Positions 49,042-49,599 of a DNA stretch of 64,000 nt are shown in pieces. The DNA lies in sequence record NC_014792.1. One strand, written 5' to 3'. The stretch's first letter is position 1; each line of letters starts with the position of its first letter. Position numbers and translations under genes: made by a program. The notes under the pieces are model-generated. The model did no database searches. It was not told the origin of the DNA and saw only the letters and a program-made list of their open reading frames with translations. The DNA comes from Escherichia phage vB_EcoM_VR7.

Positions 49042-49599
49042 TTATGCGTTCATAGTTGGGATAACAGTGTTCAGGTATTTTACCAGAACTTTTAATTCGT
49101 CTTTAGTGAATACTACTTCAGCTTCACCATCGTGGGTCTGGATGATAGATAACATATCGCGACCTTGATGTTGATGGACACTGAATTCAGTATTATAATC
49201 ACCTTCTTCATCACCTTCAAAGGTTTCGCTTGAATGCATAATAGCATCACAACCAGGAATTTTCCACTCGAGCTCAGGTACACACTCTTCTTGGAAGAGT
49301 TTAAAAATACAATCAAAGAATTTATCAGAATCGCTGATGCTTAGGCATTCTTCATCTGTTTCGATATTAAACCCGGCGTCGTGCTTATAAATGCGAGCAC
49401 ATACATCATCGTTAATATCAAATACACCGCTAAAACTACCGTCAAGATATCCATCTTTATCCAAAACCATTAAATCATAAAGCGGTTTGATATCATGGAT
49501 AGTTAGTACGATTTTATCGTCTTCTTGACTAAGCTCAATTGCATTATTAACTACTTCAGCAGTCAGTTCGCCAAACAATTCAGTTGTTTCAATAATCAT
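49042..49599 (-). CDS. highly acidic hypothetical protein
   Basis: 185 aa, very Asp/Glu-rich. Confidence 0.5.
   Translation of the reverse strand: MIIETTELFGELTAEVVNNAIELSQEDDKIVLTIHDIKPLYDLMVLDKDGYLDGSFSGVFDINDDVCARIYKHDAGFNIETDEECLSISDSDKFFDCIFKLFQEECVPELEWKIPGCDAIMHSSETFEGDEEGDYNTEFSVHQHQGRDMLSIIQTHDGEAEVVFTKDELKVLVKYLNTVIPTMNA

Follow-up and report, generated by a model that had tools for sequence, protein, structure and literature searches.

The VR7 ortholog of T4 MobD.1, a strongly acidic early-region phage protein with a predicted PC4-like fold and a recombining N-terminal domain

The mobD.1 locus of phage VR7

The DNA analysed here is a window of 64,000 nucleotides from Escherichia phage vB_EcoM_VR7 (sequence record NC_014792.1), and the features that bear on the gene under study are collected in Table 1. 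A sequence-only reading that preceded this work had placed a protein of 185 aa at 49042-49599, between a nucleotidyltransferase and a TraR-like zinc finger, and both statements hold: the ORF listing gives an ATG-initiated frame of 185 codons at exactly these positions on the minus strand, and Pfam identifies the two flanking products as a nucleotidyltransferase and a DksA/TraR zinc finger. The gene lies in a tightly packed block that is headed by an early-promoter-like site, and a terminator-like hairpin sets this block off from the upstream transcription unit. In T4, early promoters occur at the corresponding place, just upstream (Pe57.9; PMC6024815), and the order of a strong terminator-like hairpin and then the promoter-like site in the VR7 window matches the T4 arrangement. 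The Shine-Dalgarno sequence of mobD.1 reaches into the stop codon of the DUF7189 gene that lies directly before it.

Table 1. Features of the mobD.1 region and other frames of the window mentioned in the text (window positions)
Feature	Position	Strand	Evidence or remark
mobD.1 ortholog (T4 Y05I family), 185 aa	49042..49599, incl. stop codon	minus	ORF listing, Pfam, PHROG
N-terminal domain, residues 1-106: repeats I (1-44) and II (57-106), predicted	49282..49599	minus	acidic in every homolog
Hypervariable cassette in the N-domain	49300..49540	minus	DNA identity to VR25 53-68%, versus mostly 93-100% in adjoining genes
C-terminal domain, residues 109-185: single third repeat, predicted	49045..49275	minus	predicted structure
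Clade-specific acidic loop, residues 123-135 (SSETFEGDEEGDY), net -6	49195..49233	minus	largely a gap in T4-type orthologs; lower pLDDT
Shine-Dalgarno sequence GAGGA	49607..49611	minus	8 nt 5' of the mobD.1 ATG; read from the sequence
DUF7189 gene, 71 aa, directly upstream of mobD.1	49610..49825	minus	Pfam PF23819, E 2.8e-31
Membrane protein gene, directly downstream of mobD.1	48580..49032	minus	PHROG 944, hydropathy analysis
Second variability patch, in the membrane protein gene	48640-48940	minus	75-87% DNA identity to VR25
NrdC.11 nucleotidyltransferase gene (T4 NrdC.11 ortholog)	47573..48583	minus	Pfam RlaP, E 5e-11; PHROG 388, E 1e-131
Hydrophobic mini-ORF, 31 codons	49825-49920	minus	between the DksA/TraR and DUF7189 genes
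DksA/TraR zinc finger	49917-50174		Pfam
Two adjoining small genes, 60 and 64 aa	50174-50356; 50356-50550	minus	both match Pfam DUF7438
Early-promoter-like site (TTTACA, 17-nt spacer, TACTAT)	51022..51050	minus	consensus scan and sequence reading; consensus match only
Terminator-like hairpin, 3' of rI.-1	51063..51090	minus	12-bp stem and T run
ORF of 174 aa	45800-46324	minus	VR25 annotation: similar to T4 NrdC.8; without Pfam match
ORF of 102 aa, net charge -21	41449-41757	minus	without Pfam match

Two further observations concern small frames of the same block. The hydrophobic mini-ORF (MIYYLEPWAWLIMAVGPVLIGLFFSWLARKL), which may encode a tiny membrane peptide, has a stop codon that overlaps the start of the DUF7189 gene, and in phage VR25 a CDS of 96 bp is annotated in the same slot (gp103). 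The two genes of 60 and 64 codons overlap by their stop and start codons (TAATG) and both match DUF7438, hence they are tandem paralogs. A PADLOC search returned nothing for MobD.1 or its four neighbours, which says little because its library holds defence rather than anti-defence genes.

One way to read the locus is that MobD.1 is the soluble partner of a module made of the membrane protein and NrdC.11, for instance an adaptor or regulator that docks on basic cytoplasmic tails. In the Gaprivervirus, Dhakavirus and RB51-type genomes examined, mobD.1 is followed by the membrane protein gene and then by nrdC.11, with genes that overlap or are closely spaced, and mobD.1 and the membrane protein gene are syntenic in RB51, VR25 and five other T-even genomes; moreover, the membrane protein carries basic tails (+5 to +7), which would complement an acidic partner, and this protein is more variable than its surroundings (80% identity between VR7 and VR25). 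However, T4 lacks the membrane protein gene there and has mobD in its place (supplement tables), the charge of the tails does not co-vary with that of MobD.1 between clades, and synteny in the early region of T-even phages mostly reflects inherited gene order and is not evidence of interaction. A partnership of this kind is considered improbable.

Family identity and distribution

In T4 the gene corresponds to the early gene mobD.1 (UniProt Y05I), of which it is the Gaprivervirus (VR7) ortholog, and its product is an annotated member of an already known family, being 100% identical to the VR7 'MobD.1 conserved hypothetical protein'. The 5-kb region around it is 96% identical to that of Escherichia phage VR25, also a Gaprivervirus. 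As the sequence-only reading had stated, the protein carries no recognisable enzymatic motif: the sole Pfam matches are T4_y05I_N (PF24449; 144 bits against a gathering cutoff of 24.9, E 2.4e-42, residues 1-106, covering the whole profile) and T4_y05I_C (PF24448; 70.3 bits, cutoff 27, E 1.8e-19, residues 109-183), and both domains are matched by all 38 aligned homologs. The protein also matches PHROG 1502 (E 3e-70), which has no assigned function.

The genomic slot is that of T4-type genomes, downstream of mobD.x/rI.-1 and upstream of nrdC.11, as judged from the VR25 and RB51 regions and the T4 gene tables. T4 MobD.1 (P39240, Y05I_BPT4) shares with the VR7 protein both Pfam domains, this slot, the length class and the 19 columns that are invariant in the family alignment across 30% identity, yet the two are only 34-38% identical, VR7 has two insertions (around residues 45-56 and 125-131), and its net charge of -30 compares with -3 to -9 in T4-type MobD.1.

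The family is narrow: of 1.84 billion cluster representatives scanned in full with HMMER, only seven matched. By tblastn, MobD.1 was detected in 718 phage records, nearly all of them from T-even-like phages of Escherichia, Shigella, Yersinia, Salmonella or Citrobacter, and the match covers at least 80% of the query in 714 of these. Many Tequatrovirus records contain two matching places, and the T4-type phage RB51 has two full-length paralogs in tandem (locus L003, 2980-3525 and 3532-4053).

A literature search found no functional study of the mobD.1/Y05I family. In some GenBank records, family members appear under names such as 'molybdopterin-guanine dinucleotide biosynthesis protein MobD', 'thymidine kinase' and 'prohead core scaffold protein', which look like propagated annotation errors, and the neighbouring NrdC.11 nucleotidyltransferase is named 'thioredoxin' in some records. 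The DUF3846 label of one GenBank record (EAWsc9) was not reproduced by Pfam scans of the 38 homologs at E values up to 10 and was rejected.

Charge of the VR7 protein and its relatives

The description of the protein as highly acidic and rich in Asp and Glu throughout is borne out by charge prediction, with 21 Asp and 21 Glu (22.7%) against 10 Lys and 2 Arg, a net charge of about -30, a pI of 4.12 and -0.16 charges per residue, and both halves carry the charge (N-domain -19, C-domain -11). Of the 120 ORFs in a non-overlapping set from the window (at least 60 aa), no other has a larger absolute net charge. By charge per residue it comes second (z = -2.5), and first when the set is limited to the 52 ORFs that reach 120 aa. 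Several small early ORFs of the window match it in acidity per residue, hence acidity alone is not rare in such genomes. The most acidic frame of the window per residue (-0.21) is the ORF of 102 aa listed in Table 1.

Extreme acidity is a feature of the clade, and total charge is not a family-wide property (-3 to -30): the proteins of Gaprivervirus and Dhakavirus have net charges of -19 to -30, versus -3 to -13 in T4-type orthologs and paralogs. The difference is seen in the C-terminal repeat, which is neutral in T4-type proteins (-2 to +1) and carries -9 to -13 in the VR7 clade, and part of the added charge sits in clade-specific insertions, most of all in the loop of residues 123-135. Like the C-domain, the segment of residues 97-115, which is basic and aromatic in T4-type orthologs, is charge-inverted in the VR7 protein.

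The N-domain, by comparison, is net negative in all 38 homologs (-3 to -19). About ten of its acidic positions are conserved across the family, with positions 4, 11, 15, 26-28, 36, 65 and 82 kept in both clades and positions 64 and 80 less strictly so, against a single basic residue, K166, that the alignment shows as conserved family-wide, and this disparity is compatible with a decoy role.

Predicted structure

An AlphaFold2 model computed from the 38 homologs (mean pLDDT 82.9, pTM 0.68) consists of three β-β-β-β-α repeats (residues 2-44, 57-106 and 111-182), and repeats I and II are predicted to form one intramolecular PUR/PC4-like domain. The fold of VR7 MobD.1 is accordingly predicted to be PC4-like, of the Pur-alpha/Whirly type, as the model has β-β-β-β-α repeats of which two make one domain. 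In proteins of this fold, two repeats make up a domain either within one chain or between chains (PMC7549692).

The best structural match of the model was Pur-alpha repeats I-II (3k44; 102 residues aligned, score 9.8), followed by MRP2 and MRP1 (2gia; 8.3 and 7.4), the Whirly proteins StWhy2 and PBF-2 (3n1h and 1l3a; 7.1 and 6.9), an SsgA-like protein (3cm1; 6.1) and Pur-alpha repeat III (5fgo; 4.0). Other searches gave less. Foldseek returned no PDB entry with E below 0.1, with a probability of only 0.63 for human PURA and sliding-clamp matches below 0.1, and against BFVD it returned family members only. Among PDB chains, a single-sequence search found none, and a profile search gave only chance-level matches at E of at least 0.065 (lipoproteins and binding proteins of ABC transporters), with no PUR, Whirly or PC4 chain. 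The PurA/PUR, Whirly and PC4 families of Pfam were not matched by any of the 38 homologs at E values up to 10. Within the protein, homology between repeats I and III is weak (E 0.0018, probability 15%), and repeat II gave no signal in the internal comparison.

The three-repeat architecture is common to Pur-alpha (PURA; 3k44, 5fgo) and the MobD.1 model, although the two proteins have no detectable sequence relationship. Pur-alpha builds an intramolecular domain from repeats I and II and dimerises through repeat III (PMC7549692). Since MobD.1 is arranged in the same way, its unpaired third repeat probably finds a partner in another repeat. The SsgA-like proteins act in actinomycete cell division, have another oligomeric state and are unrelated to MobD.1 in sequence.

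Pur-alpha binds its ligands through basic and aromatic residues of its sheets, the open sheet face is the nucleic-acid-binding face in PC4-like proteins, and Whirly, MRP1/2 and ChmC are basic proteins. These ligands are purine-rich ssDNA and ssRNA in the case of Pur-alpha (PMC7549692), while the ligand of Whirly, MRP1/2 and ChmC is single-stranded nucleic acid, with MRP1/2 and ChmC forming tetramers (PMC7549692, PMC11077065). MobD.1 might be a regulator that binds single-stranded RNA or DNA in the same manner. This is implied by the Pfam label 'putative transcription factor', and it would agree with the structural matches, nearly all of which are single-strand nucleic-acid binders, with the use to which the PC4-like fold is overwhelmingly put (PMC7549692), with the RNA binding of ChmC, which is itself a phage protein of Whirly fold (PMC11077065), and with the basic, aromatic stretch 97-115 of T4-type orthologs. 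Unlike Pur-alpha, however, MobD.1 is strongly acidic and its conserved glutamates probably line the sheet face: strand periodicity and hydrophobicity, rather than model coordinates, would place E4, E11 and E15 of repeat I on its open sheet face. Unlike Whirly, MRP and ChmC proteins, the family has a single conserved basic residue and, in addition, a third repeat. Single-strand binding is regarded as unlikely, though the least so of the alternatives to the decoy proposal below.

A single-repeat relative encoded next to mobD.1

The DUF7189 product encoded directly upstream of mobD.1 is likewise acidic. Its β3-turn-β4-helix (GISIEQDDDVIYLDASQVEALYSIL) aligns to repeat I of MobD.1 (AIELSQEDDKIVLTIHDIKPLYDLM) with an hhalign probability of 91% (E 1.2e-6), and 8 of the 38 MobD.1 homologs show a weak Pfam match to DUF7189, so that profile comparison points to the DUF7189 protein as a single-repeat paralog of MobD.1 repeat I. 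The other genes of the block that were tried as single PUR-like repeats (the mobD.5-like gene, a 78-aa ORF, the two DUF7438 genes and tk.1) were rejected with hhalign probabilities below 3%, and they serve as negative controls for the DUF7189 match.

A metagenomic contig of 1201 bp carries a frame (protein P0026) in which residues 1-25 of DUF7189 are fused to residues 91-185 of MobD.1. It represents a natural deletion of the N-domain that leaves repeat III in frame and corresponds to window positions 49045-49825. Heterodimers have been suggested for Pur-alpha and Pur-beta, and for the tandem RB51 paralogs it is possible that they form heterodimers via their third repeats.

Variability and recombination of the N-domain

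Between VR7 and RB51, protein identity is 38% for MobD.1, compared with 81% for NrdC.11 and 72% for thymidine kinase. Between VR7 and VR25, the N-domain is about 50% identical, whereas the C-terminal half (residues 99-185) is about 98% identical and most flanking proteins are 98-100% identical (NrdC.11 99%, the membrane protein 80%). The membrane protein gene contains the second patch of variability (Table 1). In 25 homologs of the acidic clade, at least eight types of N-domain and four types of C-domain occur in reassorted combinations, and residues 43-96 vary most. The N-domain is therefore a recombining variable cassette.

In eight genomes (NG86 method), residues 43-100 have a median pairwise dN/dS of 0.33 and a maximum of 0.59, versus 0.07 in the C-domain, 0.08 in nrdC.11 and 0.17 in the membrane protein, which puts the variable part of the N-domain at four to five times its flanks. 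Between VR7 and VR25, dS is 0.8-1.4 in the N-domain, compared with 0.13 in the C-domain and nrdC.11. No claim of positive selection is made, since dN/dS, although raised, does not reach 1, and the dS values suffer from saturation or from inflation through recombination. The pattern is instead that of an exchange of old, divergent alleles combined with weaker constraint, which is consistent with a gene for host interaction; at the same time, a dN/dS below 1 and the high dS of imported alleles mean that relaxed constraint and recombination would explain the variability without an arms race.

Expression and disruption of the T4 ortholog

T4 mobD.1 falls into the early RNA and early protein classes of a time-resolved transcriptome and proteome, in which the protein was quantified by mass spectrometry, and MobD.1 is made in quantity early in infection (PMC9697503 supplement). 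In the preprint on the transposon study HIDEN-SEQ, T4 mobD.1 is non-essential, with insertions at 58 of 59 TA sites, and its disruption had a log2FC of -0.04 (adjusted p 1.0) in one conditional comparison (10.1101/2025.11.20.689424). The same preprint gives bas37_0208 and bas37_0209, which we assigned to the MobD.1 positions of Bas37 by position and size, as non-essential, with non-significant values of +0.18 and +0.06 for K-12 versus CFT073, and its main text does not name mobD.1 among the anti-defence hits (10.1101/2025.11.20.689424). Within these comparisons, the null result is one for the T4 and Bas37 genes and not for the VR7-type protein.

Dispensability in T4, as recorded in these tables, agrees with the view that mobD.1 is an accessory ORF in decay or without function, with relaxed constraint as the sole source of its acidity and variability, and so do the raised dN/dS of the N-domain and the existence of natural deletion and split variants. 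However, the protein is full-length in the 714 of 718 matching phage records, dN/dS is well under neutral in the C-domain (0.07) as well as in the N-domain (0.2-0.3), the 19 invariant columns persist, and T4 invests in early synthesis of the protein in quantity; loss of function is hence very improbable.

The same data bear on the DNA-mimic idea of the sequence-only reading, which was offered there as speculation from composition. In its strict form, MobD.1 would be a true mimic of dsDNA, with carboxylates that stand in for backbone phosphates and obstruct a restriction enzyme or another DNA-sensing defence. T7 Ocr, ArdA, T4 Arn and Ugi are, like MobD.1, small, very acidic, early-expressed and non-enzymatic, and a charge density of -0.16 per residue with a pI of 4.1 is within the range of known DNA mimics; however, modification of T-even DNA already stops most classical restriction. 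The early expression of the T4 ortholog and the hypervariable, recombining N-domain would fit mimicry, as would the location in an accessory region, in which the nearby T4 gene nrdC.1 was recently found to inhibit Septu (10.1101/2025.11.20.689424). Against it, no fold similarity between MobD.1 and these four proteins was found, known DNA mimics being absent among the structural matches of both the fold comparison and Foldseek, total charge is not conserved family-wide, with the low values of T4-type proteins described above, and in the HIDEN-SEQ tables available, disruption of T4 mobD.1 and the Bas37 genes was without effect. On balance, dsDNA mimicry has a low probability, on a par with that of a partnership with the membrane protein and NrdC.11.

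Proposed role

The reading that we prefer, and put forward tentatively, is that MobD.1 is an early stoichiometric binder or decoy of a basic protein rather than of nucleic acid, probably a dimer through repeat III, with repeat II providing specificity. MobD.1 would be a non-enzymatic protein of three PC4-like (Pur-alpha/Whirly) repeats, of which repeat III would pair with a second repeat III in a homodimer or with a single-repeat protein such as the DUF7189 product; pairing of repeat III appears most likely because this repeat alone cannot make a full domain. As carboxylates and not Lys or Arg are conserved, and as the VR7 clade is super-acidic, the protein is proposed not to bind nucleic acid. 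It would act early in infection, bound to a basic host or defence protein that is probably a nucleic-acid-binding protein itself, and the recombining, hypervariable repeat II may set the specificity for this target or evade recognition.

In favour of this proposal, we count the N-domain acidity of all homologs, the conserved carboxylates, the divergence and raised dN/dS of the N-domain, the reassortment of alleles, the tandem paralogs, the natural deletion variant and the adjoining DUF7189 paralog. Counted against it are the total charge, which is not conserved, the basic, aromatic segment 97-115 of T4-type proteins, which could bind nucleic acid, the dN/dS below 1, and the lack of a phenotype for T4 mobD.1 or the Bas37 genes in those HIDEN-SEQ comparisons that were available.

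A bolder version goes further: the PUR/Whirly fold would have been inverted into an acidic mimic of nucleic acid, so that MobD.1 dimers, possibly mixed with DUF7189, would trap a host single-strand nucleic-acid binder or defence sensor on carboxylate-covered sheets, and phages would exchange the cassette-like repeat II to keep pace with variants of the target. We consider this a long shot. If true, anti-defence decoys would gain a structurally new class, one whose specificity modules can be exchanged.

Significance and anti-defence genes in the region

MobD.1 is one of many early gene products of T-even phages that are expressed yet dispensable in the laboratory and have no known function. The three-repeat architecture, the conserved acidic residues, the recombining N-domain and the adjoining paralog make the family a reasonable candidate for partner hunting and host-range studies. 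A decoy would mean that a nucleic-acid-binding fold has been reused as a mimic, whereas binding of RNA or ssDNA despite the charge would set MobD.1 apart within the PC4-like superfamily.

Recent work assigns anti-defence activity to genes near mobD.1: T4 nrdC.1 acts against Septu, and a Bas37 gene, bas37_0203 (528 bp), is reported as an inhibitor of Druantia type III (10.1101/2025.11.20.689424). The latter was considered as a relative of MobD.1 and rejected: its position and size correspond to the slot of NrdC.8, three genes ahead of the putative nrdC.11 of Bas37. In the VR7 window, the ORF of 174 aa that the VR25 annotation likens to T4 NrdC.8 (Table 1) may therefore, by position and size, be the ortholog of this recently reported anti-defence gene.
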